A stretch of DNA of 61,954 bases, counting the filler. It is 7 parts of 7 records of this genome, joined end to end, with 100 filler letters (N's around TTAATTAATTAA, not from the genome) between each part and the next. Parts side by side here need not be neighbours in the genome. Positions count along the whole stretch, not along the records: positions 1 to 17,682 come from DRR723986_7963; 6 more parts are not named here. One strand, 5' to 3'. The position numbers were made by a program, and so were the translations under genes. Below are positions 1-17,782 of the stretch, piece by piece (the first letter of the stretch is position 1; each line of letters begins with the position of its first letter). The notes beneath the pieces are model-generated. The model worked only from the letters and a program-made list of their open reading frames with translations. It made no database searches and was not told where the DNA came from.

Positions 1-149
1 GCCATTGCATTTTTTACTCATTTCCAGGAATATGGCTGGCAAACATTTAAACTCGGTTATAAATTGATTTTATATCGCCTGCCGTGGGCTACTCAAATTC
101 TCTGGTGGATTTTGAAGGAAAATCCCAGAGAATTTCGAGTTTCTATTTT

Positions 150-977
150 CTATACGGCAATGAATGATTGTGTTTTCCCGAACTGTTCTGGGGCAAGGAA
201 ATTCAGGTAGGAGTGTTTCCTTTTTCTATTGTACCAGATTTCGATGAATTCAAAGAGTTCCATTTGTGTATGATAGATAGTCAATTCTGGAATATGATAA
301 ATAAGCTCTGATTTGATTATTTTGAAGAAGTTTTCAGCTACTGCATTATCCCAACAAATTCCTTTTCTGCTCATACTCTGGTGGATTTTATAGATTATAA
401 GCAGATTTCTGAATTCTTCACAGGCATATTGAACTCCCCTGTCAGAATGAAACATCAGTTCCCTTGGATTCGCCGTTCTATTTTTGATTGCCATCTTAAA
501 TGCGGCTATGACGGTTTTCCCTGCTTCCATGGTAGAACTCAAAGACCATCCGATAATTTTCCTGTCAAACAAATCCATGATAATGGTCAGATAAATCCAT
601 TCCTGCTTAGTTCTTACATAAGTGATGTCAGACACCCATTTTTCTCCAGGTCGGCTGGCGCTAAATTCCCTGTCAATCAAATTCTTCGTAGGAGGATATC
701 CATGCTTCGAATCTGTGGGCGACACCTTGAATTTCTTACAGATAATGCTACGCAGGCCCAGCAGTTTCATCAGTCTGGCTACCCTGGGTCGGAAAACAAG
801 TATTCCCCGATCCTTGAGTTCTATCCTCATTTTGGGACTCCCCAGGCGAGATTTGGTCTGTTTATGCAGTTCTTGAATAGCTGCTTTCAAAACCTGATTC
901 TCTAAGGCCCTTTTAGTAGGTTTTCTGCTTAGCCAGGCATAATAGACACTTCTTGATACACAGAAAACTTTACACAT
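150..977 (-). CDS. IS3-family transposase OrfB (rve integrase, DDE)
   Basis: Motifs WVSDITY, FHSDRGVQY and DNAVAENFF give an intact D-D-E triad; C-terminal WYNRKRKHSYL. Confidence 0.9.
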   Translation of the reverse strand: MCKVFCVSRSVYYAWLSRKPTKRALENQVLKAAIQELHKQTKSRLGSPKMRIELKDRGILVFRPRVARLMKLLGLRSIICKKFKVSPTDSKHGYPPTKNLIDREFSASRPGEKWVSDITYVRTKQEWIYLTIIMDLFDRKIIGWSLSSTMEAGKTVIAAFKMAIKNRTANPRELMFHSDRGVQYACEEFRNLLIIYKIHQSMSRKGICWDNAVAENFFKIIKSELIYHIPELTIYHTQMELFEFIEIWYNRKRKHSYLNFLAPEQFGKTQSFIAV

Positions 978-1322
978 GTTCTCAACAGCAAATTCCGATT
1001 GGTATTCATGAACCTGAATATTTGTTGTCGCTCTTGGAAAAGATGATTACAGCCTTTTTTAAGATATCTCGTTCGATCTTCGCTTCTTTTAGTGCCTACC
1101 TTAATTCGGCTATTTCGCGTTGTTCAGCAATCAAAACCGGTTTCCCATTGCCTGTGAAACTGGACGCTCCAGTTAATGCAAATTCCCGGTTCCACCGCCT
1201 GACCATATCGCCAGGAACACCTAATTACCTGCCGATCTCAATGGAGGATTTACAGCTTTTCTGTAATTCAACTGCCATCAATTAAAAGCCCTGTCAAAAG
1301 TTCTTCTTGATCTGTCACTCAT
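978..1322 (-). pseudogene. IS3 transposase OrfA (HTH), inactivated
   Basis: Manual translation: MSDRSRRTFDRAF, then a frameshift, then LMAVELQ...IGR*LGVPGDMVRRW...ELR*ALKEAKIERDILKKA (one frameshift plus two in-frame stops). Confidence 0.8.
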
Positions 1323-1415
1323 TGATTCAAAGTTAGGAGAGCTTAACTTCCTGACCAATCAAATGTAGCAGCTCCACCTAAGCCCATCTTTTCGCTTGGC
1401 CCCTAAAAAGACATC

Positions 1416-1445
1416 AAAAAAGTAGCTCCAGAATTAACCGGAGCT
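1416..1445 (-). terminator. Possible intrinsic terminator downstream of the VOC gene
   Basis: AGCTCC/GGAGCT stem with an A-tract on + (U-tract on -). Confidence 0.35.
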
Positions 1446-1570
1446 TCACTAGATGAGCTTCCGTACAACGAATCGCCTGAAGCCCTCTTTTCGCTAACGT
1501 GAATTGGCAAATAATCTTATAAATTATTTGATATTTAAGACACTACCTCGGTTGTGCGATCGTTCTTTTT

Positions 1571-2065
1571 CTAATTTGGCGAATGAAGTCCGATCTTATT
1601 TCCTTCCGAGTCGTGGAAAATTGCAAAAAATCCACTCTCGTCTGCGTGGGGTGTTTTAGGAATAATAATCTTTCCTCCATTTCCTTCTACTCTATCAAGA
1701 ATAGGTTGCAAGTTATCCCCACCATTCAGATAAATGGTAACTCCCTTGGCAGAAGGTTCTAAACCTTCTTCTCTCATAATAACTCCTGTCACCATTTGGT
1801 TTTGGTATGGAAAAATGCCCATTTCCATTCCTTGGGACTCTAATTTTTCAATTTCTATGCCTAAAGTTCCTTTGTAAAAGTTTATGGCTCTCGAAATATC
1901 CGTTGCTGGAATCTCAAATATTGATATAAAACTTTTCATGTTATTATCGTTCTTGATTGTTAATTCTTTAGTAAGATTTGAATTGGTAGCAGTTGTACCT
2001 TTGTTTTTGCAGGAGACATTTCCAAAAGTCAAAGCCATTATTGTTATAAATATTTTTCCTTTCAT
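1571..2065 (-). CDS. VOC/glyoxalase family protein with N-terminal lipoprotein-like signal
   Basis: FEIPATDISRAINFY...GVTIYLNGGDNL...VEGNGGKIIIPKT...FAIFHDSEGNKIGLHS; N-terminal ...FGNVSC lipobox-like segment. Confidence 0.85.
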   Translation of the reverse strand: MKGKIFITIMALTFGNVSCKNKGTTATNSNLTKELTIKNDNNMKSFISIFEIPATDISRAINFYKGTLGIEIEKLESQGMEMGIFPYQNQMVTGVIMREEGLEPSAKGVTIYLNGGDNLQPILDRVEGNGGKIIIPKTPHADESGFFAIFHDSEGNKIGLHSPN

Positions 2066-2140
2066 TTTATGTCCGTTGTAGATGAAGTAAAATTACAAGT
2101 AGGTAGTCGCTAGAAATTGTAAAAATGCGACACCATTAAA

Positions 2141-2956
2141 CTATTTATAGAAAAGGGCGGAAAGAACTAAGTTTTCGTGATTAATAAATTCTTTGGGGTT
2201 TGTACCTGTAAATTTTTTAAAGTCCTTTATGAAGTGTGCTTGGTCGAAATATTCACTTTCATAGGCAACAATGGTAAGATCTTCTGATTTCTTGTAAAGC
2301 AAAATTTTTAAAGCGGTTTGAAACCGAATAACCTTTCCCAATTGTTTAGGACTTACCCCAATTTGCTTTTTGAAGTTCCTTTCTAATTGTCTTCGTTTTG
2401 AGAAGTTCTCTTTTAGGATTGAGTTTATTGAGGCACTACCGTTTGTGGATAAGAGTGAGTCAACGGTGTTTTTTACAATTGTATTTATCGTCTTTTGGTC
2501 ATTAAACCTATCCAAAAGAAATTTTTCGATAATACTTATGCGTTCTTCAGTATCCTTCGCTTTTATTATTTTTTGCTCCAAATCATTTGCGATTTCTCCT
2601 CCGAAAAGTTGGTTTATAGACGTTTCCTTATTAGCCAAATTGCTGATTGGTACAGAGACAAAATTTGCAAATCCATAAGGGTAAAAACGGACAGCAAATG
2701 TTTTGACAATCCCTGTGGGCTCAATGTAAAACGGTTCAATTGTTTGGCCAAGCACCATTGCCCGAGGTTGAAGTATAAATTCATTTTCAGAAGTGTACCG
2801 TTTTATGTCGGCTCCAAGAATAAACGCAATTTCAATACAACCATCAGGTACAATTCGTTGTTTTTGCGGTTCAGACTGTTTAGGTAATTCCAAAGTCCAA
2901 TAGCAACTAACAAGTGATTTTAGGTCAGCATGTGGTTCAAATGTTTGATAGTCCAT
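2141..2956 (-). CDS. AraC-family transcriptional regulator (DUF6597-type N-domain)
   Basis: N-terminal IVPDGCIE; C-terminal double HTH RQLERNFKKQIGVSPKQL...YFDQAHFIKDFKKFTG. Confidence 0.9.
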   Translation of the reverse strand: MDYQTFEPHADLKSLVSCYWTLELPKQSEPQKQRIVPDGCIEIAFILGADIKRYTSENEFILQPRAMVLGQTIEPFYIEPTGIVKTFAVRFYPYGFANFVSVPISNLANKETSINQLFGGEIANDLEQKIIKAKDTEERISIIEKFLLDRFNDQKTINTIVKNTVDSLLSTNGSASINSILKENFSKRRQLERNFKKQIGVSPKQLGKVIRFQTALKILLYKKSEDLTIVAYESEYFDQAHFIKDFKKFTGTNPKEFINHENLVLSALFYK

Positions 2957-3006
2957 TTATCTTTAGGTTGTTTTTTCTGAGTTCGGACTAACGGCATCCA
3001 AAACTC

Positions 3007-3510
3007 TTAAAAATCAGCAGTTTTTAGTGCTAGATCGTCTTCTATGAGACCGAATTTATCGATTTGATTCTTTTATTTCTTAACTAATCCCCACTTTCTT
3101 CCTGATCCTTCCGGATTGAGAGATGGAGTTTCTTTTACCACCATGTCCCAAAGGGTCACCGCCAATTTTCGTACTGTGGCGCTGGTGGCAGAGACTCGGC
3201 CTTTTCTAAAACTAATTCTTTGGAACAAGTCCCCCAGAGGAGTTGATTCCTTTAAGTTTTCGATAGCATTAGAAGCGTTTCGGAATGGGATTTTTAGTCT
3301 ATTGCTTCCTTAAAGTACTTTGCTGAACAGGAGTTTCCCTCCGCTGATACTGGGATAAGTGCTAATCAAAGCCAGGAAAAAAAGTGCGTGGCGGTTTTGA
3401 ACTTTTTGATTCCATCTGGCCCGACTTCGCTCATCAGAGATAGTACGGTTGAGAATCTCATTCCTTTTATCTCCAACAGCCCTGGCCCTTCAAAGAGTTA
3501 AAAGACTTTC
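3007..3510 (-). pseudogene. IS110-family transposase remnant (C-terminal half)
   Basis: Manual minus-strand translation gives LLEIKGMRFSTVLSLMSEVGPDGIKKFKTATHFFSWL*...ISGGKLL...GSNRLKIPFRNASNAIENLKESTPLGDLFQRISFRKGRVSATSATVRKLAVTLWDMVVK...QIDKFGL, with stops and frameshifts. Absent from the ORF track. Confidence 0.75.
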
Positions 3511-3790
3511 ATATTGATGCAGTCAAGTTCAATTGGAATGGTTAGAATTTCCTATCTATGTGTATTCCACCCACAATGGTTTCTGGGTGGAATTTGCCTA
3601 CACTCCTCCCATAAATTGTTGTTGACTGGAGAAAGATTAAAATGATTTATGATCATTTTTTTAATGCATTGGCTTACTATCCCTACTGGAAAGATTATTT
3701 TGAATAGACTTCAACTTAAGTGCATTTAAAACGATTATAATTTTTAATTGGGGAATTGACGAAAAGAAGTAGAAGATAGAAGATTATTAG

Positions 3791-3821
3791 TGTTTACCTT
3801 TTTTAGGTTCAGATGACTAAG
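3791..3821 (+). promoter_or_regulatory. Putative ECF promoter, copy 1 (TGTTTACC-N16-GACTAAG)
   Basis: Exact match to the copies at 10327-10357 (-) and 10562-10592 (+); ends 32 nt before the OmpA ATG. Confidence 0.8.
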
Positions 3822-3853
3822 TAGCAGAAACAGATAAAAAATCAACTACTGCT

Positions 3854-5260
3854 ATGAAGACAATATCTTTTAGAAAAACACTATTCCTGAATGGCGCTAT
3901 CGTCTTAATTCCTATATTTTTTTCACAGGCACAAGTCAAGGAACGTGTAGTAAACCAAGCTAAGGAATCTACAGCAAGCAAGGCAGAGCGAACTGTTGAC
4001 CAAACCATCGAATCGGTGGGTGATGGTATCATCAACGGAGTGAAAGGAGTATTCAAGAAAAAAGACAAAAAGGAAAAAGGCTCCAAGAATGAGATCGGAG
4101 GAGATTCCACTGTGATGGAAGATGGTTTCTCGGATTGGTCTAAGGATAACTCCAGCCCGAATCATTCCAGTGGCCAGGACACTCCCAGCCTATCCAAATA
4201 CACGAAGTTTTCATTTATCCAAGGAGAAGAAATAGTTGTCTTTGATGATTTTAAGCAAGACAACGTAGGTGATCTCCCTGCCTCCTGGATTACAACAGGT
4301 GCTGCCGAAGTGGTCAATTTTGAAGGATTGGAAGGGAATTGGGTTTGGTTCAATAAAACCAAAGGCAATTTTGTCCCTGAGTATTTGAACGATTTTCCTG
4401 AAAATTTCACTTTAGAATTTGATCTGATGTACGATTTTGCATTTGGTACTTTCAGCGGAAGCAGAAGAATCATGCTAGTTTTCTCAGATATTGCCAACCC
4501 GGAAGCAAAGCTTGACTGGGATGGAGGTGGGGATTATTTCAACCTTCAAAAATTGTCAGATAATTACCTTGGTGTTGAATTTTCTGGCAATAGCCATGAC
4601 GGAGGACCTTACATAACTGGTAAAAAAGCGGTTCACACTGAAAAAGGATTGAATTTCAGTAACTCTTTTAATGCCGGTAACCTGATAAATGCAGAAGAGG
4701 CTAATAAGCCGATACACATTTCCATTTCCAGAATGGGAAGAAGAGTCCAGGTATTTGCCAATGAGGAGAAAGTCTTGGACCTTACTGCTGCTTTTCAAAA
4801 AGATGTGAACCTAACCAGTGCCCGATTCTTTGTCAACAATGCGACGGATGCTGACAACTATTACCTAAGCAACATTCGCTATGCGGTAGGTCAACCGGAT
4901 TCCCGCAGCAAACTCCTGGAAAGTGGCAACTACAGCACTTCCGCCATCACATTTAACTCCGGTTCGGCTGAGATTAAACCTGAGTCTTATGCCATCCTAA
5001 AGGAGATAGCCGAAGCCCTAAACGCTGAACCAACTAAATCAGTATCCATAATCGGCCATACAGATAGTGATGGCTCCGCAGAACTGAACCAGCGACTATC
5101 TGAGGAACGTGCAGCTGCTGTAATGCATGCCTTGCAAACCGAATTTGCTGTAAATAACGCCATTGAGACCTCCGGTAAAGGGGCTTCAGTTCCCATCGCT
5201 GAAAACGACACCCCTACTGGAAAAGCGAATAACAGAAGGGTGGAATTTATCCTGAATTAA
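3854..5260 (+). CDS. Secreted OmpA-family protein (beta-rich N-domain plus C-terminal OmpA_C peptidoglycan-binding domain)
   Basis: Signal peptide ending SQA-Q; C-terminal ITFNSGSAEI...GHTDSDG...NQRLSEERA...NRRVEF. Confidence 0.9.
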   Translation: MKTISFRKTLFLNGAIVLIPIFFSQAQVKERVVNQAKESTASKAERTVDQTIESVGDGIINGVKGVFKKKDKKEKGSKNEIGGDSTVMEDGFSDWSKDNSSPNHSSGQDTPSLSKYTKFSFIQGEEIVVFDDFKQDNVGDLPASWITTGAAEVVNFEGLEGNWVWFNKTKGNFVPEYLNDFPENFTLEFDLMYDFAFGTFSGSRRIMLVFSDIANPEAKLDWDGGGDYFNLQKLSDNYLGVEFSGNSHDGGPYITGKKAVHTEKGLNFSNSFNAGNLINAEEANKPIHISISRMGRRVQVFANEEKVLDLTAAFQKDVNLTSARFFVNNATDADNYYLSNIRYAVGQPDSRSKLLESGNYSTSAITFNSGSAEIKPESYAILKEIAEALNAEPTKSVSIIGHTDSDGSAELNQRLSEERAAAVMHALQTEFAVNNAIETSGKGASVPIAENDTPTGKANNRRVEFILN

Positions 5261-5349
5261 TTCTGATCCAAAGCTTTTTGGCAGGTGCCTAGACCATAAT
5301 TATCTTGACAATCTGAAATCCATTTTTATAATAAAACATATCATACACA

Positions 5350-5775
5350 ATGAAACGACACTATTTCCATCTTCCGGCCTTAAGCTTGATAGCCGTCCTT
5401 TTACTTTCCCACTGCAATGAAAAAGAAGAGCCGGTAACTGACTTTTCTCAATTTGTTCTAGGTGAATGGACGCTCGCAGAAAGCAATTTTATAAATGATG
5501 AGGTGATCGATGAATGCAATTATCAAACGACCTACACTTTTGGCAGCGATGGAAATCTAAACATCAATCCGGTTGCCACAGCCTATGATGAAAACAATAC
5601 CCCCTACTGCACTGCTCCGATAAATGATGGGCTGGGGTTTGATCTCCACTATGGCATCAATGGGAATCGAATGGAAAGTGAGCTGGGGGACGCTACGTTA
5701 ATGAAATCTTCCGAGACAAGCCTTAAGCTAACTTTTGAAAATGAAGATCTTGGGATAGTTGAGTTGACCCGATAG
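5350..5775 (+). CDS. Lipocalin-like lipoprotein
   Basis: Lipobox LLSHC; VLGEWTL lipocalin-like GxW motif; all-beta pattern. Confidence 0.65.
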   Translation: MKRHYFHLPALSLIAVLLLSHCNEKEEPVTDFSQFVLGEWTLAESNFINDEVIDECNYQTTYTFGSDGNLNINPVATAYDENNTPYCTAPINDGLGFDLHYGINGNRMESELGDATLMKSSETSLKLTFENEDLGIVELTR

Positions 5776-5965
5776 AACACCTATTTACTAAATTCAATTT
5801 CAATAAAAGATTTTGGGATTGCTTGAAAAAATTCATTATACATGAGAGCAAAAATGTCATTGAATATAAAGCATATTTAATTTTAGCTCCCCAGACTTCG
5901 ACATGAATTTTGTTAGAATCAATTAAATCCGAATATATTAGTGATATTTTTTTTAATCAACTTAT

Positions 5966-8782
5966 ATGATCACACAAATTCACAAGCTGCTTTGCGGTCT
6001 GATACTGTTTTTCCATACCATCCCTCTATCTGCGCAAAACCTATCGCAAGATACAGTGCATTACCTCAAGCTATATGAGGAAGGAATGGATTATTATATC
6101 AAAGGCGATCACGGTAAAGCAAAGCAATATGTTATAAAGTTAAGTGAGTTGGCTTATAAAAACGGTTGGGAGAATAAATGGGTCGAACACATGATTGAAA
6201 TCAGCAGTTTTGAGCTCTATGATGGAGATTTTGAAAACGCACTGCAAATATTAGATTCTCTAGTTAAGCTATCTGAAGAAGGGAAAATCCGAAAAGAAAT
6301 CAATAAATTCCAAATATATGACTGGTATTCCGGTTTTCTTGCCAATGACGGAGATATAGAGACCTCCCAAGTATTTCTGACCAAAGCTCAAGAACTTATC
6401 CCTAAACTTCCGGCCCAAATGCAGAATACTTCAATGCAGAAGCTAGAAAATGGCCGGGCTCTGAATTTTTATAAATTCGGGGATTTGAGAAGAGCTAAAG
6501 CATCCTTTTTACGATCCATTGACTTACTCCACAAAGCATATTTGGATGGGGTCTATTCTGAAAAAGACGAATATGAGTTTACCAAAGTAATTCTTTATAA
6601 GAATATCGCAAATAATGAAATCTTAGCCGGAGAATTTGCAAATGCCAAATTGTACTTAGATTCTGCCCTTCTGACCTTTTCAAAATTAACCGATCCATAT
6701 TACCAAAATTCACCAATGGCAGCCGCAATCAATAATTCCTTTGGAGATTATTATAAGGGATTGGGAGATTTTGAGCTAGCGGAGAAGGCAATGAAAAATA
6801 GAATAGAAGAATTGGAGAAATATGAAAAAAGAGTCAATCTCCAAATGAGAATAGAGGCAAGACAAAATTTGGCAAACTTATATTTCAAAAACGGCATCTA
6901 CGATCTTGCCAAGTCTAATTATGAGATAAGTTTAAAGTACCTGAAAGACCTTAAAACATCAGAACCTTCTAAGTATCGGTATTTATGGAAAATCATTGAT
7001 TTTTATCAAAATACTAATGAAGACAGTCTGAGTAATCATTTGCTATCAAGAGTCGATTTTGAAACTGATCCCATACGTCTCTACTATAGTGGTGCTGAAA
7101 CTTCAATTGTATCTATGTATGCACTCAAAGCCAATTCATTGGCGAAGGTATCATCGGTAGATGAGGGATGGAATGAGTCCAATTTTTTAGATTTTAACCG
7201 AAAGGCCTTAAGTATATCCAATCAAATAGGCATGCTGAACCAAGCAGGACTAAGCAATTCATTAACAGAGCCCACAAAACTTGCGCTTGACTCCTACATT
7301 GCAAATTTATACCGGCTGTACAAGCGCAATCCGGAAGTGAATACCCTTATTGAGGCCTTAAATGTGATTGAGTTTTCAAATAATAAGAACTATAATGATC
7401 AATTAATTACAGGTCATTTGGCGAGAAACAATCCTGATTCCAGCCTTGTGAATGAGAAAAAAAAATTGCAGCGAAAACTGGACGAGTTGGAGAAAAACAT
7501 TGCTTCAGGGGTAGGTGATATCCTTGTGGATTCCATTGTAAAAGTATCTTATCGGTTAGAGAAAATAAATGATCAGTTAATCGAAGCGATTCCTGAAATA
7601 CAATCAATGGCAGAGTTTCGAGTCAATGAAGATATCCTTAAAGGAATAAATCTAGCTGAAGATCAGCAAGCGTTTCTCTTTTATTATTCGGAAAGTACAC
7701 TCTATATTTTATCAAGGTCAGGAAAGGAAAATGACTGGAATTGGGCAGGTGTTCCGACACAAAATCTAGATGGACTGATTGAAACCTCAAACACCGCTTT
7801 TCGTGAAATTTCAGATTCGGGCTGGCAGCAAGCAGGCAAACAACTTTTTCAAATTCTATTAAAAGGTCGGATTTCTCCAGGATCCAAAAGGCTGGTGATT
7901 TACCCACATGGAAATATTGGACTGATTCCTTTTGCTGCTTTAATCGATGTAAATGACAACTATCTGGTGGAAAATTATTCCATCTCTATCAAGAATAGGT
8001 TTGAGAAGAAAGATAAAAGCTCATTCAGGCCTAAAAAGCCTACTGAAATTCTGGCATTTGCTCCATATTTTGAAAATTCGCAGCAGCAGTTCCAACGAAA
8101 TTTATATGGCTATCTAGGTGGGACCAGACAGGAAGTAGCTGGAATCTCAAGGTATTTCAAAACCAAGCTATACGAAGGACTCTCTGCTACTAAGCAAAAT
8201 TTCATAAGGGAAAGCAAGAACAATAAATTTATCCATTTAGCCACACATGCCTTTGCGGAACCTAATGTTATGTTCTCAAAAATTATATTTTCAGGTGACG
8301 GCAATGAAGATGTACACAGCCTATTTGGTTATGAAATTGCAGGTTTAAATTGGGACGTTGAGATGCTGATTTTAAGCGCATGTCAAACCGGATATGGTAG
8401 ATTCCAACTCGGTGAAGGCATTTCAAGTCTTGCCAAATTATTTTCTGATGCAGGCGCCAAAAGCTTACTATTCACGCTTTGGAAAGTAGATGATTACGCC
8501 AGCGCTGAACTAATGACTCTTTATTACAGCTATCTAGAAGCTGGCTTGGAAAAAGACCTTGCGCTGCAGGCTGCACAGAAATCCTACTTGCAAAACAATG
8601 AGGAAGCTAAAAACATGCCATTTTTCTGGGCAGGATTTGTCGTAAGCGGTGAGGTTACGCCAGTGTATAGAAGCAGTTTGCCTTTCAATGCACTTCTAGT
8701 TGGTTTAGTTATTATCGGATTGCTTATAGTGATCTTAGTAAGGAAAAAAATTGCTAGGACTCGCAAGACAATCAGACACTAA
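5966..8782 (+). CDS. TPR-CHAT (caspase HetF-associated) protease, signal peptide plus C-terminal TM anchor
   Basis: Signal peptide ...PLSA-Q; TPR-like helices; CHAT motifs LVIYPHG.IGLIPFAAL, FIHLATHA (catalytic His), LILSACQTGYG (catalytic Cys), LWKVDD, PFFWAGFV; C-terminal hydrophobic helix followed by RKK. Confidence 0.92.
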   Translation: MITQIHKLLCGLILFFHTIPLSAQNLSQDTVHYLKLYEEGMDYYIKGDHGKAKQYVIKLSELAYKNGWENKWVEHMIEISSFELYDGDFENALQILDSLVKLSEEGKIRKEINKFQIYDWYSGFLANDGDIETSQVFLTKAQELIPKLPAQMQNTSMQKLENGRALNFYKFGDLRRAKASFLRSIDLLHKAYLDGVYSEKDEYEFTKVILYKNIANNEILAGEFANAKLYLDSALLTFSKLTDPYYQNSPMAAAINNSFGDYYKGLGDFELAEKAMKNRIEELEKYEKRVNLQMRIEARQNLANLYFKNGIYDLAKSNYEISLKYLKDLKTSEPSKYRYLWKIIDFYQNTNEDSLSNHLLSRVDFETDPIRLYYSGAETSIVSMYALKANSLAKVSSVDEGWNESNFLDFNRKALSISNQIGMLNQAGLSNSLTEPTKLALDSYIANLYRLYKRNPEVNTLIEALNVIEFSNNKNYNDQLITGHLARNNPDSSLVNEKKKLQRKLDELEKNIASGVGDILVDSIVKVSYRLEKINDQLIEAIPEIQSMAEFRVNEDILKGINLAEDQQAFLFYYSESTLYILSRSGKENDWNWAGVPTQNLDGLIETSNTAFREISDSGWQQAGKQLFQILLKGRISPGSKRLVIYPHGNIGLIPFAALIDVNDNYLVENYSISIKNRFEKKDKSSFRPKKPTEILAFAPYFENSQQQFQRNLYGYLGGTRQEVAGISRYFKTKLYEGLSATKQNFIRESKNNKFIHLATHAFAEPNVMFSKIIFSGDGNEDVHSLFGYEIAGLNWDVEMLILSACQTGYGRFQLGEGISSLAKLFSDAGAKSLLFTLWKVDDYASAELMTLYYSYLEAGLEKDLALQAAQKSYLQNNEEAKNMPFFWAGFVVSGEVTPVYRSSLPFNALLVGLVIIGLLIVILVRKKIARTRKTIRH

Positions 8783-8956
8783 CTTCGGTCTGCTGGAACT
8801 AAAAGCCAACAAGTTAAGTCAATCGCTAATTTAATCGTAAGGTTACCAATAGCTATTCTGATAGGATTGGAAAGAGAATTATCAAAGAGAATAAATAGAC
8901 ATGTTGAAGAGAAGACACTCCTCATTACGCATGTAAATGGTGGCGGAAGTTATTTA

Positions 8957-8994
8957 AAAATTCCCCAGCCCCTTAAAAAGCATTGGGGAATTTT
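8957..8994. terminator. Bidirectional terminator-like hairpin between convergent CHAT and anti-sigma genes
   Basis: Perfect 11-bp inverted repeat AAAATTCCCCA/TGGGGAATTTT. Confidence 0.6.
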
Positions 8995-9014
8995 GATTCT
9001 ACTTGATTCTCACT

Positions 9015-9767
9015 CTATTTATCCAAAACAAGCAGAATTCTCTCCACCTCATCCATCTTATATCCGCTGCTTTTTCTGAGCCGGATCATCTCTTCTTTAC
9101 CCCTTAGGGTATCACCTTTTACAAGATAAGCAAGTGCCATGTACCATTTGGCCTGATCCCGAAGCTGGGTGCCGTCGCTATATATATAATTGTCAAAATA
9201 ATGGATTGCGCTATCGTATTGGCCAAGTTCAAACTTGGTGATTCCTTTATAGAACTGAACATAATCGGTCTGATATGGGAGAATCCTGGTAAACAGACTA
9301 TCAGAAAGACTGTAATTTTTGCTTTCATACGCTATGAATGAGGCTTTCTCCAAATCCTCCGGATTCAACTCTTCTCCACGAGTGATCGGTGAAACTACGT
9401 TGGGATATGCAGTGTAATACGAAAGAAAAGAATCCGTAGCAGGCGCGGAGGAAGTGGTATCAGAAAGGTTTAGGATAAGGACAGTGGCGGCAACCAATAA
9501 CACTATTCCTGCTGCAACCTTCCATAGGTATGGTTTGGCCTGTATTTTCCGAACTTTTTGGCTGCTTACCAACCCCTCCTCTACTCCGCCTAAAAAAGCT
9601 TTGATCTCAGAATGTTTATTTCGGATTATCGCTTCCCGGGTCGCCTGCTGCAACTCAAATTCTTCCCTGAATTCAGCATCGGAGCGAAGCAATTCTTCCA
9701 AAATGAGTTTTTCATCTGCTGTCAGGCTGCCTTTAATGAAACGGTCCAGCAATTCGTTGCTTTCCAT
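9015..9767 (-). CDS. Putative anti-sigma factor: cytoplasmic helical N-domain, single TM, periplasmic TPR domain
   Basis: Start overlaps the sigma stop (TGATG at 9767); LLDRFIKGSLTADE N-terminus; TM WKVAAGIVLLVAATVLIL; TPR FYKGITKFELGQYDSAIHYF...AKWYMALAYL. Confidence 0.8.
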   Translation of the reverse strand: MESNELLDRFIKGSLTADEKLILEELLRSDAEFREEFELQQATREAIIRNKHSEIKAFLGGVEEGLVSSQKVRKIQAKPYLWKVAAGIVLLVAATVLILNLSDTTSSAPATDSFLSYYTAYPNVVSPITRGEELNPEDLEKASFIAYESKNYSLSDSLFTRILPYQTDYVQFYKGITKFELGQYDSAIHYFDNYIYSDGTQLRDQAKWYMALAYLVKGDTLRGKEEMIRLRKSSGYKMDEVERILLVLDK

Positions 9768-10321
9768 CAGTAATCAAATTTTTTGTGTTTGAACGACTCC
9801 TTGAGTGACTTCATACAGCGTGATTTATGGCTTTTCACCACGTCTGGATGATTGTAATCCATAAGTTGCTGGATCTCCTTCATGCTTTTGTTTTCGTAGT
9901 AATAGTACTCGAGGATTTTCCTGCACTTCTCCCCTAGCTTAGCGAGTGACTTTCCCAGGAAGGACACCTTTGGATCCGGTTCTTCGATGAAAAGTTTGGC
10001 TTCTTCATACAATCCCGCAGACCACTCCTGGTCTTCCTTTAATTCCAAGCCAGGTTGCTCTCGTTTCAATCGGGTAAAGAGCATAAATTTCCCCATTGAG
10101 AACAGGTAAGTTTTAATGCTGCTTTTTTCAAGTTCCAACTTTCCGCTCACCGCCCTGTCAAATAAGGCGATGCTTACATCCTGATAGATGTCCTGCAAAA
10201 GCTCTTCTCCCTGATGATACCTTTTGGCAAACTGGAGGAATGGCTCCCTATACAACTTATACACTTCTGCCAGAGCTGATTTATCACCAGACTTAAGTCG
10301 CTCTATAAGAATATCACGCAT
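9767..10321 (-). CDS. ECF-family RNA polymerase sigma factor
   Basis: 184 aa; region 2 QDIYQDVSIALF...SIKTYLFSM; region 4 LGEKCRKILEYYYYENKSMKEIQQLM...VVKSHKSRC. Confidence 0.92.
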   Translation of the reverse strand: MRDILIERLKSGDKSALAEVYKLYREPFLQFAKRYHQGEELLQDIYQDVSIALFDRAVSGKLELEKSSIKTYLFSMGKFMLFTRLKREQPGLELKEDQEWSAGLYEEAKLFIEEPDPKVSFLGKSLAKLGEKCRKILEYYYYENKSMKEIQQLMDYNHPDVVKSHKSRCMKSLKESFKHKKFDY

Positions 10322-10326
10322 TTACC

Positions 10327-10357
10327 CTTAGTCTTAAAAATTGGAATAAGGTAAACA
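10327..10357 (-). promoter_or_regulatory. Putative ECF autoregulatory promoter, copy 2
   Basis: Minus strand reads TGTTTACC ttattccaatttttaa GACTAAG ggtaa ATG. Confidence 0.8.
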
Positions 10358-10561
10358 TATCCTTTTTTTCTTTATTGACAACTAGTTAGTTGACCAATCT
10401 ATAAAAAGAAGCCTTACTTTCTGGCAAGTAGTTACTTAGCTCTATTTTTCAGCTTTTCTTCCTTAGGAATAATACCAGTCGCTTTTCTAGCTATGCAGAA
10501 GAGTCTGTATCAGTGATAATTATCAGATATACAGCCAGTTTAGAAATTTGTAATACTTTTC

Positions 10562-10592
10562 TGTTTACCATTTTCCTCCCACCCAGACTAAG
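10562..10592 (+). promoter_or_regulatory. Putative ECF promoter, copy 3
   Basis: TGTTTACC attttcctcccaccca GACTAAG, ending 24 nt before the ATG at 10617. Confidence 0.8.
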
Positions 10593-10616
10593 ACATAGCA
10601 AACAAAATCAACAGCT

Positions 10617-11399
10617 ATGAACAGATACTCAATTTCTAAAATTTTCCTGCTAGCCTTCTCACTATTTTTTCTGGGAAATGCAGGGGAATGCCAAATCCTG
10701 AAAAAAATCCGGGAACAGATGGCCGTGAAACCTAACTCCGAATCCGCTGAATCAGACGGGGAAAATGCATTAGGTGGAATCGACCTTACTGGCATGATGG
10801 GGCAGACAAAAGATTTCAAAGCCCCCTCCGCTTACAATTTTGACTTTCAGGTCACCATGGAAATGCAGATGGAAAAAGGAAAGTCCATGAATCAGGTATG
10901 GAAGTACAACATCGCAGAAAGTTACTTTGGAATAGAAATGTCCAATATGCTGATCATCTATGACCTGGACAGTGATGTAATGGTGACACTCAATCCCAAA
11001 GATAAAACTTACACAGCCATGTCTACGGCTATGATGGGAATGTTTGGTAATGCTGCTGATGCAGCCGATGATGCCAGTATACCTGAAATGAGAAAGACCA
11101 ATGAGACCAAATCTATCCTGGGCTACACCGCTACCAAGTACATCATGGAGGATGAAAACCTAAAAGGTGAGTTCTGGATGGCTCCTGATGTGGAGTTTGA
11201 CCAGTCAGCCTTTGCCAAATCATTGAGTTCTTACTCTAAAAACCCAGTGCCTTTACCTGAGAAAATGCAGGGATTCATGATGGAAATGACTGCTTTTGAC
11301 AAAAAAGGAAAAGTGACCTCAACAATGAAAGTGGTGCAACTCGGAGAGATAGATCAGATGATCAATATGTCTGACTATAAAAATGGAATGACATTCTAA
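10617..11399 (+). CDS. Secreted DUF4412-like protein
   Basis: Signal peptide; KTNETKSILGYTATKY...GEFWMA...GFMMEM pattern typical of DUF4412/GLPGLI-like proteins. Confidence 0.75.
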   Translation: MNRYSISKIFLLAFSLFFLGNAGECQILKKIREQMAVKPNSESAESDGENALGGIDLTGMMGQTKDFKAPSAYNFDFQVTMEMQMEKGKSMNQVWKYNIAESYFGIEMSNMLIIYDLDSDVMVTLNPKDKTYTAMSTAMMGMFGNAADAADDASIPEMRKTNETKSILGYTATKYIMEDENLKGEFWMAPDVEFDQSAFAKSLSSYSKNPVPLPEKMQGFMMEMTAFDKKGKVTSTMKVVQLGEIDQMINMSDYKNGMTF

Positions 11400-11411
11400 T
11401 ATATCTTGGCT

Positions 11412-12116
11412 ATGAAACCTAAAAATTTCATTTTCACCTTACTTATACTGGCGCTGGCATCTTCCTGCAGCTCTACCACCACAGAATCAGAAGCAGGAAA
11501 ACAGCTCCATTTAAAGACAGTGGTTTCTTCCTGCCTGAAGGATTATTCTGAAGAAAATAAAGGAAAATTTTTTACAGAAACGTTGATCCAAGATCTGGCA
11601 AATGGCAATGAGATCACAGCCGACCATTATGAGCCAGCCCATCTTTACAAATTTTACTGGAAAGAAAAAGGCGTAGACCATTTCATAGGATTTGAAGAAA
11701 TGCAGACAGCCAAAGAGTTGAGCATTCTTAAAGACAAGGGACACAGCCAAAGCTCCACACCCCTAATCGACTATGTAAAAATGACCTACCGGGACAAAAC
11801 CCCAGAAGAACAAACCAGGCTGAACAAGCTATTAGATGAGCAACTGGATAAATCCGAAGATCCAAACGCCTCCGGCACCTCAAATAAAGCTCTCCAAAAA
11901 AAAGGGATGGGGATGGAAACTATGGCCTATGTCCCATTGGATTCCAAGGCAGATTATGCGGTGTACAACAGAAAAAGCTTTAGTCTCTACATGGTCTTGG
12001 GAGATGTGCTCATCACCTTAAGTGCACAGGTGGGACCCTACGGATCTGTAAACGAATCCCTAAGCATTGAACTTGCAAGGAAACTTGCGGATAAAGTCGC
12101 TGAATTATGCATTTGA
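11412..12116 (+). CDS. Hypothetical lipoprotein
   Basis: ATG at 11412; lipobox LALASSC; operonic spacing. Confidence 0.75.
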   Translation: MKPKNFIFTLLILALASSCSSTTTESEAGKQLHLKTVVSSCLKDYSEENKGKFFTETLIQDLANGNEITADHYEPAHLYKFYWKEKGVDHFIGFEEMQTAKELSILKDKGHSQSSTPLIDYVKMTYRDKTPEEQTRLNKLLDEQLDKSEDPNASGTSNKALQKKGMGMETMAYVPLDSKADYAVYNRKSFSLYMVLGDVLITLSAQVGPYGSVNESLSIELARKLADKVAELCI

Positions 12117-12679
12117 TCGTATTGATAATCCTGTACATTCCGATTTTTCTATTCCAAAATGAGCAGTTAAAGAAATTTCCAATTGGTACAGATACTGACC
12201 GTCAACAAACACACCTAGTGTATTTGGAGATTGGTGAACGGGTAGTTTTTGACTCTATGGAAATGGCAAACGCCACGCTTTCCCACTATCCTAACCAGCA
12301 CATATTTAGCATCATGGACAATGAAGGTCAACATATCTCACTGACCTTTGCAGGCAAGGATATTTCTTCAAGAAAGCCCATGGAGTTGAAATTTGACCAT
12401 CCTGGTTTATTCCATGGATATAGTGAGAATGGCGATGTGTTTTTTATTGCTTTTGGAAAACTCGACCAAGAGCGGGATCCAAGACAGATCAAGTACGATC
12501 TTTCCTTTCCCTCAGATATCATGGAAGGCAGATTAACAGTCATCAACTGGACTCCAGAAGAATTTGAATTTGCGTTCGAAGGCAAACTGGGGAAAAGCGA
12601 TGCCGTCGATAAACCGGAGAGTTGGCAACCATTTTCAGGCTATGTGAAAGCGCAAAACTATCAGGAATTCCACCTGTAG
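12107..12679 (+). CDS. Hypothetical exported protein
   Basis: Hydrophobic N-terminus; overlaps the upstream stop by 10 nt; beta-rich. Confidence 0.7.
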   Translation: MHLIVLIILYIPIFLFQNEQLKKFPIGTDTDRQQTHLVYLEIGERVVFDSMEMANATLSHYPNQHIFSIMDNEGQHISLTFAGKDISSRKPMELKFDHPGLFHGYSENGDVFFIAFGKLDQERDPRQIKYDLSFPSDIMEGRLTVINWTPEEFEFAFEGKLGKSDAVDKPESWQPFSGYVKAQNYQEFHL

Positions 12680-12774
12680 GTTTATGCTTGCCGTTTACTG
12701 ATTAAACAAAAACTTCAAAACAGCCACCATAACGCTATTAATATCATTATTCATTTACATCAAACACATCAACT

Positions 12775-13281
12775 ATGAAAACGTTTATTCGAATTATCGC
12801 TGTGGCTTGGTTCACCTTTATTCTGGTCGAATCCAATGCCCAAACTGTCAAAGGAGCCATTTCGGTCGGGAAAAAATCTGAATTGAAACTGGAAACCCGA
12901 TCCGACAACATGATAGATATTTTTATTGACTTCCGAAAAGAAAGGTATCCCATCTTATTTTCTTTTCAGGGAGAGGACATCAAATCAAAAGAGGGCAAAG
13001 AAATCATATTCTTCGAGTTTATTACAGAGGTATATCACAATGGCAAATTGATGGGCAAGACCTCCCGAAATCCAATGCCATACATCCCCGGGGACATGAT
13101 TATAGGCACGGAAGGATTTGATTTCATCTCCCTGCTATCTTACAATGAAAAAAGCCGTGCTTCTCTAAAGGAAACGCCAGGAAAGCTTGCGCCGGGTAGC
13201 TATCAGGTGAAGCTCCTTGCCCGTCCCTTGGAAGCCAAGGGGCAGATCAAGCCTGCCACATTTTCATTCAACATCCAATAG
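12775..13281 (+). CDS. Hypothetical secreted protein (Ig-like beta sandwich possible)
   Basis: Signal peptide ending SNA-Q; C-terminal LAPGSYQVKL strand motif. Confidence 0.75.
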   Translation: MKTFIRIIAVAWFTFILVESNAQTVKGAISVGKKSELKLETRSDNMIDIFIDFRKERYPILFSFQGEDIKSKEGKEIIFFEFITEVYHNGKLMGKTSRNPMPYIPGDMIIGTEGFDFISLLSYNEKSRASLKETPGKLAPGSYQVKLLARPLEAKGQIKPATFSFNIQ

Positions 13282-13288
13282 ACATGCT

Positions 13289-13891
13289 ATGAAGACTAAT
13301 TTAATTAATCGGATTCTATTATTTACTGGCATGTCATTACTGGCTTTTGCCTGCGCCGGATCATCCGAAGATCAAGCCTTAGAAAAAGTTGCCAAAGAGC
13401 TGGGTATGGACAAGGAGAAATTGAAGAACAAGTCCTTCTATTCCTTTGAAATTACAGGAGGCACACTAAACGGGCAGACATTCACCACGCCTGTATATGC
13501 TCAGGGAGGAATTGATAGCCGATGGAATGAGAACACAGAAATAAGTGCCACCACCATAGGTTTTGTAGATCCTCCACAAGGCAATAGTACGTTTAGGATG
13601 ATTTGGGAAGGTGACAAAATTAGTCCTCTAAAGCCAGAAGAAAATCCATTTGGGGAGAATTCCTATATAGAACTGAAGGTGGAGAAAAATGATAAGAAAT
13701 ATACCTTCTTATCCAATGGCGGTTCTTATCAAGTAGTTTCAAAAAACAAGAAAGCCTGGGTGGACCAGATCACTAAGAAAGAGTATCCAATTTTAGATAT
13801 CGAGGCTGAGTTTGAAGGCGATTTTACTGAAACTAACTCAGGAGAAAAAGTGAAAATCAAGGGCTGGGTAAAGGGTTTTGATCCTCGCTAA
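13289..13891 (+). CDS. Hypothetical lipoprotein
   Basis: Start re-called at ATG 13289 (7 nt after the upstream stop); lipobox LLAFAC. Confidence 0.75.
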   Translation: MKTNLINRILLFTGMSLLAFACAGSSEDQALEKVAKELGMDKEKLKNKSFYSFEITGGTLNGQTFTTPVYAQGGIDSRWNENTEISATTIGFVDPPQGNSTFRMIWEGDKISPLKPEENPFGENSYIELKVEKNDKKYTFLSNGGSYQVVSKNKKAWVDQITKKEYPILDIEAEFEGDFTETNSGEKVKIKGWVKGFDPR

Positions 13892-14014
13892 GTGATCTTT
13901 CTTTCGCCCTTTTCTCCGAATATCTAAACCAAATCAGGCAATCAAATCTATGCTGTAGCTGAGCAACCAGCTGCAATAGAGATTCCTTTGCCCATTACCT
14001 AACACCTACTCCCT

Positions 14015-14812
14015 ATGAAATATTATATCAAAACCTTTTTGCTGTCCACTCTTGTAATTCTATTTGGGAACAACTTTCTCAGAGCCCAGACTTTCCCGGT
14101 TCAGGCAACAGGAATATTTACCTTAAACGACGGTAATGAACTGAGGATATTACAGAATCTTACTTCTACACAAATCAACGGAATATTGGCCAATGCCAAA
14201 AAAGAAAAGTTGGCAGATTTTAGTGGGAGTTACAATAAGGACACAGGGAAGGTACTTGCCAAGATGACGTATTGTGACGGCAATAAAGAGCAATTAACTT
14301 TTTTTTTCACCAGGGGCGATGCGAATGTTTCAGAAATTTATTTTGGAACTGCCCCTGATGACAGAAAAGCCATAGGAAACCGAAAAGGAAGAACCAGGCC
14401 AACACTTGCATTTCAATGTGCCGAAGGAACAGCCAATATTCAGGAGCCTTTCTTGGGAAAAGGATCCTGGACCGGGACCTGGAAGACACATCTAGGAATG
14501 ATCAGATTAATCCATATCAATGATATCGCTACAGGCAACGTATTCGTGGTGGGAGATTTTAAAGATACCGGAGTCATCCAACTGATTGATTTTGATGGCA
14601 ATGAAGTAGAAGGAGAATTTACATCCCATACCCAGGGCGACGGTTATTTCAAAATCACCCGGGTCAGCGAAACCAAGTTTGAAGGTACATATAGATGGGG
14701 AATGCAGAGCGAGTGGACTAAGTGGGGAGGAGAGCGCAAAGACGCCAAACTCCCCCTATTGACTTCCGAAGGTGCTCAGCTCTTGGTCAATCGACTATTG
14801 ACAGAATACTAA
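14015..14812 (+). CDS. Hypothetical secreted protein with two predicted small beta-barrel domains
   Basis: Signal peptide ending LRA-Q; Gly/aromatic strand pattern, e.g. SWTGTWKTHLG...FEGTYRWG. Confidence 0.75.
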   Translation: MKYYIKTFLLSTLVILFGNNFLRAQTFPVQATGIFTLNDGNELRILQNLTSTQINGILANAKKEKLADFSGSYNKDTGKVLAKMTYCDGNKEQLTFFFTRGDANVSEIYFGTAPDDRKAIGNRKGRTRPTLAFQCAEGTANIQEPFLGKGSWTGTWKTHLGMIRLIHINDIATGNVFVVGDFKDTGVIQLIDFDGNEVEGEFTSHTQGDGYFKITRVSETKFEGTYRWGMQSEWTKWGGERKDAKLPLLTSEGAQLLVNRLLTEY

Positions 14813-14840
14813 CCAAGCTCAACTTTAACTTAAAAAAATC

Positions 14841-16442
14841 ATGAGAAAACACATTTATATACCCCTATTTCTACTCTTTTTGGCAGGATGGGCACAGGCT
14901 CAGAATTACACAGGTGTATGGAACGCCGCTATGGTGAATGACAAAACGAAAGTGGATACGAACATTGAGTATCATCTCACACAAAATGGCAATACTGTCA
15001 CAGGAGAAATTATCCACAAGAAGGAAAACATGAAGGCTATAGTCACAGGAACACTTGCCAATGGTGAGGTGAACGGCACCTTAAAGTATGATAAAAACCA
15101 GTGGGCATCTCTGGATCAAAAGTTCAGGATTTTCACCAGGCCCACTGACAATGCAACTATTTTTATGCATGAGAGTACAAAAGGTGCACGGTATTTCGGA
15201 GGTCCCCTCTTCAAAAACCAAGCCCTCACCAATCAGCAAGCTAGTAAAGCTCAGGCTGCAACTTCACTACAAAAAGGCGCATTTTCTTCAGGAAGTGGTA
15301 CGGTAGTGCAGCAGTCAACTGCTAAACCTAAAGTGGGCGTAGCAATGGCAACCACACCCACGAAGACAGCCAGAAATATTGGCGGATATTATCGTATAGA
15401 AGGAATGAGTGATGCTAATGGAACCAAGAGAAATCTCTATGTAAATGTAAAAAACTTCCCAGATCCCAAAGACAGAAGTAAAGCGTATGGCGAAGCGTTA
15501 ATTATGGGAGAAGCGTATGGTATTGGATCAGCTCAGAAAAAACTGTTTGGTTATGAAACCAACGGAGATGATATCACAGTCATGTTTGACACGATCTATG
15601 AATTGAATAAAAAGAACACCATGGCAAATGGGCGGGTTGAAGGAATCTATCTGATAGCACCAAAACAAGGCTACAAAATGATCAAAATCAGTCAGGCAGA
15701 AGCAGAGCGGGAGAGTAAAAAGCTGAGTGCTACAGTGAAGGTGAGGGTGGATTATAAGTTTATTTATCTGGCTTCATCCCTTTATTGGGATAAGTCATTT
15801 TTAAACTACAACCTAACAGACAAAGGCTCAATGGCATTGTACGGGACGGGAAGTATCCGTGTTTATAAGGAAACTTCCTCTAACACTACAGAGCTTAAAG
15901 CTATCAATAATGCTTCAGCACGAATTTTTGATACTCCAAAATCAAGAGCTGCAAGCAAGCCTAACCTTTCTTATTTTGATAAAAGCAAAAATCGTTCTTG
16001 GGGAGGTTTAAACTATCATTTCTTTGGCTTCTATAGTTTTGCTAAAGACGCAGATTTCCCCAACCCCCCAGGGGGTGATAAACACACAAGAGGTGCTATA
16101 TTTCCTGTTAATCGTTATCTTGAATTTGAAGTGAGTCGTGCCGCTTTGGAGGGTAAAACAGAACGCATAGCAATTAATGGACATGCGCACCTTTCAAATG
16201 CTCTTCCTTTTGGGGATGCTAATTTCGGGAATATGCATCGTAGAGTTTATCTTCATGAATTGACTGATCAGAGTAAACTTACTGAGGAGGAAAAAAAATT
16301 CAATAGAAAATTAGAAGGAAAAGGGCATCCTCATGCAGGATCATTAGTAAGTCCGCCTTACTATTTTTTTGCAATCAAAAAGGATCAACAATTTTCTACT
16401 CCAGCAGTAATGATCGCTTTTACTGTGGAAATTATTGAATAG
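14841..16442 (+). CDS. Hypothetical multidomain secreted protein
   Basis: Signal peptide ending AQA-Q; NYTGVW...LTQNGNTVTG domain, A/S/T/Q-rich linker, further beta domains. Confidence 0.8.
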   Translation: MRKHIYIPLFLLFLAGWAQAQNYTGVWNAAMVNDKTKVDTNIEYHLTQNGNTVTGEIIHKKENMKAIVTGTLANGEVNGTLKYDKNQWASLDQKFRIFTRPTDNATIFMHESTKGARYFGGPLFKNQALTNQQASKAQAATSLQKGAFSSGSGTVVQQSTAKPKVGVAMATTPTKTARNIGGYYRIEGMSDANGTKRNLYVNVKNFPDPKDRSKAYGEALIMGEAYGIGSAQKKLFGYETNGDDITVMFDTIYELNKKNTMANGRVEGIYLIAPKQGYKMIKISQAEAERESKKLSATVKVRVDYKFIYLASSLYWDKSFLNYNLTDKGSMALYGTGSIRVYKETSSNTTELKAINNASARIFDTPKSRAASKPNLSYFDKSKNRSWGGLNYHFFGFYSFAKDADFPNPPGGDKHTRGAIFPVNRYLEFEVSRAALEGKTERIAINGHAHLSNALPFGDANFGNMHRRVYLHELTDQSKLTEEEKKFNRKLEGKGHPHAGSLVSPPYYFFAIKKDQQFSTPAVMIAFTVEIIE

Positions 16443-16482
16443 AAAATGATAGAAACTAAAAGAAACACCTAATCTGTTAAAG

Positions 16483-17682: not shown

Positions 17683-17782
17683 NNNNNNNNNNNNNNNNNN
17701 NNNNNNNNNNNNNNNNNNNNNNNNNNTTAATTAATTAANNNNNNNNNNNNNNNNNNNNNNNNNNNNNNNNNNNNNNNNNNNN
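17683..17782. other. Artificial contig spacer
   Basis: 44 N + TTAATTAATTAA + 44 N; base composition changes abruptly across it. Confidence 0.99.

Follow-up and report, generated by a model that had tools for sequence, protein, structure and literature searches.

The stretch of DNA analysed here, 61,954 bases long and referred to below as the window, carries a gene cluster around a sigma factor of the extracytoplasmic function (ECF) type, in which three copies of a bipartite motif stand as candidate promoters for this factor. The sigma gene (positions 9767-10321, minus strand) encodes 184 amino acids (aa), of which residues 16-175 match the NCBIfam profile TIGR02937 (sigma70-ECF) with 55.2 bits (cut-off 42.9). 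The Pfam profiles of regions 2 and 4 match weakly as well, and among solved structures that of Bacillus subtilis SigW comes closest (5wuq; residues 6-172, E 1.7e-4). The open reading frame (ORF) fits an ECF (group 4) sigma-70 factor, in that the ECF profile extends over regions 2 and 4 while regions 1.1 and 3 are absent. The sigma factor of Algoriphagus locisalis DSM 23445 is 97% identical to that of the window, and the host is an Algoriphagus-like bacterium.

Together with the sigma gene, two others make up the core module of the locus. The first encodes a putative single-pass anti-sigma factor (9015-9767, minus strand; 250 aa) and shares a stop/start overlap with the sigma gene at 9767. The protein is predicted to consist of a cytoplasmic N-terminal part, a transmembrane helix at about residues 81-101 and a periplasmic domain with TPR-like repeats, and it has weak NCBIfam matches to an anti-sigma E protein (E 0.0012) and to TPR proteins. 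Its translated N-terminus contains no cysteine and thus no CHCC zinc site. Convergent to this gene pair, the third gene of the module (5966-8782, plus strand) encodes a predicted exported TPR-CHAT protease of 938 aa, with an N-terminal signal peptide, a TPR region, a CHAT domain at residues 622-896 (Pfam CHAT, 5.2e-53) and a C-terminal transmembrane helix. His757, His761 and Cys806 of this protein are invariant in nine of nine orthologues.

The module is flanked by plus-strand genes for envelope and secreted proteins. On the left lies the gene of an OmpA-like envelope protein (3854-5260; 468 aa), which has a signal peptide, an unknown middle part and a C-terminal OmpA peptidoglycan-binding domain (Pfam OmpA, 5.5e-22, residues 366-461). 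It is followed by the gene of a small predicted lipoprotein (5350-5775; 141 aa; signal peptide ending ...LLSHC) that has no Pfam or NCBIfam match. On the right, eight co-directional genes (10617-17292) with gaps of at most 123 nucleotides (nt) between them are predicted from their ORFs and N-terminal signal sequences to encode exported proteins and lipoproteins, the first being a DUF4412 protein (Pfam DUF4412, 2.5e-09). This run, from 10.6 to 17.3 kb, is plausibly one transcription unit.

Three copies of a bipartite motif in the window

An exact search with TGTTTACC-N16-GACTAAG gives three matches in the window, namely copy 1 at 3791-3821 (plus strand), copy 2 at 10327-10357 (minus strand) and copy 3 at 10562-10592 (plus strand), and no match in any of 100 dinucleotide-preserving shuffles. 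A relaxed regular expression run over all 61,954 bases returns the same three sites only. Each copy is intergenic and oriented toward the next ATG, the distance from the end of GACTAAG being 32 nt for the OmpA-like gene (3854), 5 nt for the sigma gene (10321, minus strand) and 24 nt for the DUF4412 gene (10617). A first-pass annotation of this DNA had described three exact copies with a 16-nt spacer of differing sequence, intergenic and correctly oriented before the ompA-like, sigma and secreted-protein genes, and had judged their chance recurrence negligible; match count, ORF map and shuffles bear out this description.

Read as a promoter, copy 1 would comprise the -35 region TGTTTACC (3791-3798), a 16-nt spacer and the -10 element GACTAA (3815-3820), and would head the OmpA-like, lipoprotein and CHAT genes. 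In copy 2, the putative autoregulatory promoter before the sigma gene, GACTAA occupies 10333-10328; in copy 3, which would head the DUF4412 gene and the secreted-protein run, it occupies 10586-10591. The spacer sequences differ among the three copies, and in a pairwise comparison of copies 1 and 2 the repeat arms are exactly 3791-3821 and 10327-10357. Since similarity stops at 31 nt and the spacers differ, the three copies are not fragments of a longer repeat. The annotation had also noted that no copy directly precedes the CHAT gene, and mismatch-tolerant as well as relaxed scans indeed find none in the 190-nt gap at 5776-5965. Nor is there an internal copy in the DUF4412-headed run (10617-17292).

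When up to three mismatches are allowed, one extra site appears in the window, at 14115-14145. It was dropped as a fourth copy, as it carries three mismatches, lies inside the ORF at 14015-14812 and has a chance expectation of 0.63.

Conservation of the motif and its link to the sigma factor

Patterns derived from a sigma alignment were searched in contigs of one genome per species (about 185,000 species genomes), which yielded at least 402 sigma relatives; the conservation counts given here refer to the best 79 of 402 loci, all from Bacteroidota and together 1.49 Mb. In these loci, the strict pattern GTT[TA]AC[CT]-N15-17-NA[CT]TAA has 205 matches, compared with 21 in the reversed sequence. 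Strict matches located at most 60 nt upstream of a same-strand, ATG-started ORF of at least 100 aa number 134, compared with 0 in the reversed control. Most sigma orthologues are preceded by TGTTTAC(C/T), 15-16 nt and (G/C)ACTAA, and the divergent gene is often faced by a second copy. With a looser pattern, 56 of 80 rows have a site in the 90 nt that precede sigma, and so do 10 of 10 rows in the clade of the window. Pattern scans thus recover the motif in relatives and upstream of orthologous sigma genes, where the first-pass annotation had suggested looking for it.

A profile of 127 unique sites reads a-T-GTT(T/A)AC(C/T)-TTTT, followed by a 15- or 16-nt spacer and (C/G)A(C/T)TAA. Spacers of 15 nt (65 sites) and 16 nt (59) make up nearly the whole set, the remaining 3 being 17 nt long; base preferences are GTT(T 62%/A 37%)AC in the -35 element and (C 62%)A(C 70%/T 29%)TAA in the -10 element. 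The elements had been annotated as -35 TTTACC and -10 GACT, a non-canonical variant. Non-canonical they are, but the exact core has to be redrawn, with TGTT(T/A)AC(C/T) and a T-tract behind it as the first half and (G/C)A(C/T)TAA as the second.

Closer relatives allow a view of the individual copies. Upstream of the OmpA-like gene, TGTTTAC, the following TTT and GACTAA are the only invariant blocks in six sequences ranging from Algoriphagus to Belliella, and blastn homology with the closest relative, the A. locisalis locus (L001), begins exactly at 3791, the first base of copy 1. Copy 2 is kept together with its spacer (TTATTCCAATTTTTAA), with one change among four Algoriphagus sequences (the window, L001, L003 and L008). 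The motif of copy 3 and the 5′ leader are conserved in four Algoriphagus sequences; the DUF4412 unit of Algoriphagus sp. 4150 (L002), at a distance of about 7.4 kb from sigma, has kept its motif copy. As a separate observation, the spacers of copies 1 and 3 vary freely, unlike that of the sigma-proximal copy.

As to the accompanying genes, relatives of the anti-sigma factor directly follow sigma in 77 of the 79 loci, and a CHAT relative is present in 76. An OmpA-like relative occurs in 44 loci, and in 20 loci its gene comes first after a strict motif site; relatives of the 141-aa lipoprotein occur in 7. Other first genes behind the motif in relatives encode type IX secretion cargo, beta-barrels, Kelch, leucine-rich repeat (LRR) and collagen-like proteins. 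Being bipartite, with a rigid spacer, directly upstream of sigma and conserved in orthologues, the motif has the layout of an autoregulated ECF-type promoter.

Motif variants cluster by sigma clade: on a quick tree they require 15 label changes, whereas shuffled labels require 40.8 on average and none of 200 shuffles came down to 15. Clustering of this kind can arise from relatedness alone. Strict co-evolution of sigma factor and motif was rejected as proof, as some loci mix TTTAC and TTAAC sites and the tree is a quick version.

Genome-wide counts were taken from the genomes of relatives. In that of the closest relative (5.4 Mb), a relaxed pattern has three matches, all in the orthologous locus, and in five further genomes 14 of 17 matches are inside the sigma locus region (8 matches in the reversed-pattern control). 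For the variant GTTAACC-N15-16-CATTAA, the locus accounts for 21 of 29 matches in five Maribacter/Arenibacter genomes, and 1 more is found 4.5 kb beyond it (reversed control, 8). Across 61 Algoriphagus genomes, three to five matches are found in exactly the 5 that possess a sigma orthologue (84-97% identity), while 53 have none and 3 have one; reversed controls give 4 matches across the 61.

Some sites lie outside the locus. In three Algoriphagus genomes, the motif precedes a gene for a 169-aa outer-membrane beta-barrel far from the locus; a fourth genome has the orthologue of this gene at a distance of 7.4 kb from sigma, and a fifth has a homologue with 40% identity next to a sigma paralogue. 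Such a pattern is what one would expect if the locus encoded a diffusible factor. Among DNA-binding proteins, the sigma factor alone is conserved in the loci; relatives of an AraC-family protein encoded in the window are found in 3 of 79. It may be recorded in addition that the extra-locus copies in three Algoriphagus genomes precede two small outer-membrane beta-barrel genes, of 169 and 196 aa (L083, L085, L096, L098; G047 C1:1320197, C1:4079405).

The promoter reading, its rivals and a possible switch

Very probably, the three sites are the promoters at which RNA polymerase with the ECF sigma factor of the locus (9767-10321) initiates. The first-pass annotation had already taken the motif for the cognate promoter of this factor, and the comparative evidence, that is conservation, confinement to the locus and co-occurrence with sigma, supports it.

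Start sites can be predicted from the same alignments. In a set of 82 unique non-sigma sites, the sixth base after the -10 hexamer is A in 85% and the seventh in 79%. This A-rich position 6-7 nt after the hexamer is likely the transcription start, which would fit the preferred initiating purine; if GACTAA is placed at -12 to -7, the start would fall 7 nt after the hexamer. In the window, transcription is predicted to start near A3826 (copy 1), near A10597 (copy 3) and at 10322 or 10321 (copy 2). At copy 2, transcription would begin on the A of the sigma ATG or one base ahead of it, so that the sigma mRNA is predicted to be leaderless or to have a leader of one base. A TAA stop stands in frame immediately before the sigma ATG, and the 6-nt gap between hexamer and ATG is kept in the Cyclobacteriaceae clade (Algoriphagus and Penaeicola; second ATG in Belliella).

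Several points weigh against reading the motif as the promoter of this sigma factor. The support is comparative, and recognition by the sigma factor, start sites, operon extents and the release step are all deduced from sequence. Co-occurrence of motif and sigma partly reflects presence or absence of the whole locus, as the sites share the locus of the sigma gene. The canonical AAC of -35 elements and CGT of -10 elements are not present in the motif. The sigma factor itself scores 18.4 bits for Pfam Sigma70_r2 and 20.8 bits for r4, below the gathering scores of 24 and 24.1, which makes it a divergent family member. Furthermore, 24 of 80 rows, mainly 19 loci of the Aquimarina clade, have no recognisable copy directly before sigma.

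The model also has a gap in the Flavobacteriia, in which the conserved sigma ATG overlaps or abuts the -10 element (ACTAATG, distance -1 to +1) in 23 of 32 strict sigma-proximal sites (L010-L013, L015, L025, L031, L038, L048, L055, L064, L078 and others; just before position 10001). Because of this overlap, a start 6-7 nt downstream would fall inside the ORF and miss the ATG; the codons after the overlapping ATG look coding, and no conserved alternative start was seen. The simple start model does not explain this arrangement, which is absent from the clade of the window. A different feature is found in Aquimarina loci (L016-L019, L021, L026, L030 and others), where a conserved motif-like site, GTTAACCTTATTCTATTATCGGGGACTAA, at position 10384 (plus strand) falls within the coding sequence of sigma, with about 110 nt between it and the anti-sigma gene.

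It is improbable that the motif is instead the binding site of a non-sigma transcription factor acting as repressor or activator on ordinary promoters. The Flavobacteriia loci would suit such a factor, as an operator could overlap the sigma ATG in the way that the -10-like half does there; an AraC-family gene is present in the window at 2141-2956, and the start sites invoked above are predictions from sequence. However, the site is asymmetric: its two halves are unlike, the spacer between them is rigid in length (15-16 nt) and free in sequence, and a T-tract follows the first half. This is the form of an ECF promoter and not of a dimeric operator. The sites always point at a gene and lie 16-40 nt from most start codons, and it is the sigma factor, not the AraC relative with its 3 of 79 loci, that is conserved as a DNA-binding protein.

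An ECF-type promoter that is read by another sigma factor encoded elsewhere, for example a 37-41%-identical paralogue, is a very improbable alternative. Such paralogues do exist in 6 of the 61 Algoriphagus genomes (G001 C3:65867-66382; in A. locisalis, 16 kb from the first sigma gene), and one of them has a TGTTTACT-containing site upstream. Yet there is no sigma paralogue in the window, two genomes with the paralogue only (G055 and G064) have 0 matches to the exact pattern, and G047, in which the orthologue is present and no paralogue is found at E <= 1e-20, has 5. An origin of the three copies in mere local duplication, without a regulatory role, can practically be discounted, as nothing beyond the 31 nt is similar, the spacers are unlike one another and both halves are kept across Bacteroidota families and classes, whereas the surrounding DNA is not.

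Regulon membership of the CHAT gene can be judged from the relatives. In A. locisalis, it is co-directional behind sigma and anti-sigma, and in many flavobacterial loci CHAT has a motif copy of its own. CHAT follows the motif directly in three Flavobacterium loci; in 16 + 3 loci, the gene next to the motif is an ORF of 207-219 aa that by its coordinates (checked in L017 and L035) is located just upstream of CHAT. The first-pass annotation had left open whether the window's CHAT gene is read through from the ompA unit or expressed independently. As CHAT lies behind the motif in relatives and belongs to their regulon, read-through from copy 1 would be the likelier option in the window; on the plus strand, no terminator-like site was found at 5260-5966.

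The CHAT gene also differs between close relatives. Comparison of window positions 5765-9036 with positions 11301-14865 of the A. locisalis locus (L001) reveals DNA homology on both flanks and none across the CHAT segment. The A. locisalis CHAT protein (1021 aa, encoded on the opposite strand) is 27% identical to that of the window even though the sigma factors are 97% identical, and the CHAT type of the window has orthologues of its own at 86-50% identity, e.g. in Belliella kenyensis. The gene appears to be a cassette swapped between close relatives, whose sensor part would be exchangeable.

If the motif is the promoter of the sigma factor of the locus, as we favour, the -35 element read by region 4 of this factor would be TGTTTACC with the following T-tract, and the -10 element read by region 2, across the rigid 16-nt spacer, would be GACTAA, transcription beginning at the A 6-7 nt after the -10 hexamer. 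Copy 2 would drive sigma and anti-sigma, amounting to positive autoregulation. Copy 1 would drive the OmpA-like and lipoprotein genes plus, by read-through, the TPR-CHAT protease gene, and copy 3 the DUF4412 gene and seven further exported-protein genes. In the resting state, sigma would be kept at the membrane by the single-pass anti-sigma factor; its release upon an envelope signal would switch on all three units together.

How release comes about can be sketched only tentatively. One doubtful possibility is a split version of the Myxococcus xanthus anti-sigma factor DdvA, described below. The exported, membrane-anchored TPR-CHAT protein would act as a site-1 protease that cuts the anti-sigma factor at the nearly invariant Arg of Y-x-P-Y-P-N-V-V-x-P-I-x-R-G, about 30 residues from the membrane on its periplasmic side, whereupon intramembrane proteolysis would free sigma. 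This periplasmic stretch is conserved in an alignment of 39 sequences, with the Asn invariant and the Arg nearly so. A complex prediction for CHAT residues 130-905 with the periplasmic anti-sigma residues 102-250 scored 0.42, compared with 0.28 for the control, which speaks neither for nor against this design. With CHAT itself in the regulon and a leaderless sigma mRNA, the design would make a fast, self-amplifying switch, and cassette exchange would replace the sensor and leave the output promoter as it is.

Neighbouring features and comparison with known systems

Several further features were recorded in the window. A palindrome (CTGTATCAGTGATAATTATCAGATATACAG; 18-nt overlapping arms, 83%) at 10505-10534, about 30 nt upstream of copy 3, is not conserved in the A. 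locisalis locus (L001) and may be a site for another regulator. Between the OmpA-like and lipoprotein genes, at 5305-5332, there is a perfect E. coli-type TTGACA-N16-TATAAT (12/12); TTGACA is kept in L003 and L008 and the second hexamer is not, and L001 has kept neither. A scan with the consensus sigma-70 promoter was set aside, as it gave 41 matches versus 34.3 expected and as the consensus is that of E. coli, which is not known to be used by Bacteroidota. Within the putative operon on the right, positions 13996-14810 (ORF 14015-14812, 265 aa, with a signal peptide) have no counterpart in the A. locisalis locus and would represent an insertion or deletion. Near the left end of the window lies an integrase-core (rve) transposase ORF of 275 aa (150-977, minus strand), and the AraC-family gene mentioned above was recognised through Pfam. 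The 900 nt upstream of the OmpA-like gene (2957-3853) contain no ORF of note and no Rfam family, and no Rfam family reached the gathering score in positions 1-20000.

The closest studied analogue would be the M. xanthus DdvS/DdvA system, which the locus resembles in outline without being a member of it. According to two reports, DdvS is an ECF sigma factor and DdvA a transmembrane anti-sigma factor with a fused periplasmic TPR-CHAT domain; four sigma-dependent promoters (P1-P4) in one locus were mapped by 5′ rapid amplification of cDNA ends (RACE), and one mapped start coincided with an annotated ATG, for which a downstream start codon was proposed, a case similar to that of the Flavobacteriia above (PMC6061681, PMC11506125). 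That start sets a precedent for the tight spacing of promoter and start codon seen here. Common to both systems are an ECF sigma factor encoded with a single-pass anti-sigma factor (a putative one here), a periplasmic TPR-CHAT module and several promoters within one locus, including that of the sigma gene itself, which are sigma-dependent there and putatively so here.

The differences are considerable. Here, anti-sigma factor (250 aa; 9015-9767, minus strand) and TPR-CHAT protein (938 aa, with its own signal peptide and C-terminal anchor; 5966-8782, plus strand) are separate genes, as they are separate ORFs in the 75 and 76 loci with delimited ORFs. The anti-sigma factor lacks the CHCC zinc site, and the CHAT His and Cys are conserved, whereas the site of DdvA is described as incomplete. 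The regulon consists of envelope and secreted proteins and not of cyclic oligonucleotide-based antiphage signalling system (CBASS) or clustered regularly interspaced short palindromic repeats (CRISPR) genes; among 13 proteins submitted to PADLOC, there was no defence match except ZorB/MotB-like ones to the OmpA domain. Finally, the phylum here is Bacteroidota.

On the promoter side, we compared the motif with the SigW promoter consensus of B. subtilis. Promoters of the SigW type share with it a bipartite -35/-10 structure, a spacer held rigidly at about 16 nt, T-rich sequence behind the -35 element, a site before the sigma/anti-sigma operon and a small envelope-related regulon. They differ in that the -35 element here is TGTTTAC(C/T) or TGTTAAC(C), not xxAAC, that the -10 element is GACTAA or CACTAA and does not contain CGT, and that the sigma mRNA is predicted to be leaderless here.

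Among classified ECF groups, the supplement to ECF classification 2.0 lists GTCTAA or CGTCTAA as -10 elements for ECF111, ECF253, ECF279 and ECF281 (PMC7826278), to which GACTAA bears a resemblance. The same supplement describes, in the genomic context of actinobacterial ECF54, a CHAT-domain protein with TPR repeats, subtilases and carboxypeptidase-regulatory-like proteins. ECF54 is thus alike in the genomic linkage of an ECF sigma factor to a TPR-CHAT protein; it differs in its phylum and in its context of subtilases and carboxypeptidase-regulatory-like proteins. CHAT, TPR and OmpA do not occur in the main text of the classification (Casas-Pastor et al. 2021, PMC7826278). In the accessible portion of supplement file 1, CHAT is tied only to ECF54, GTTTAC, TTTACC, ACTAA and TTTAC do not occur, and none of 17 passages that mention presence in Bacteroidetes matches the sigma/CHAT context. 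Literature searches returned no paper joining an ECF sigma factor and a CHAT domain for Bacteroidetes, nor a CHAT domain and a sigma factor for Flavobacterium, and a search on TGTTTAC with sigma gave unrelated matches only.

An autoregulated ECF promoter is a known kind of switch, encountered here in an uncharacterised sigma/anti-sigma/CHAT family. The constant pairing of a sigma factor with a periplasmic TPR-CHAT protein provides a simple two-gene system, with culturable type strains, for studying the control of anti-sigma factors by CHAT proteases, a question that was raised by the DdvA work and left open in it. Should the promoter reading be true, stringent promoters with little predicted cross-talk would be useful as parts for genetic tools in Bacteroidota. 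A fairly widespread ECF family of this phylum would then gain a defined promoter, TGTT(T/A)AC(C/T)-N15-16-(G/C)A(C/T)TAA, and its regulon would become readable from sequence: tiny and local in the window, with three units, and made up in relatives of variable surface proteins such as OmpA-like proteins, beta-barrels, type IX cargo, Kelch and LRR proteins.

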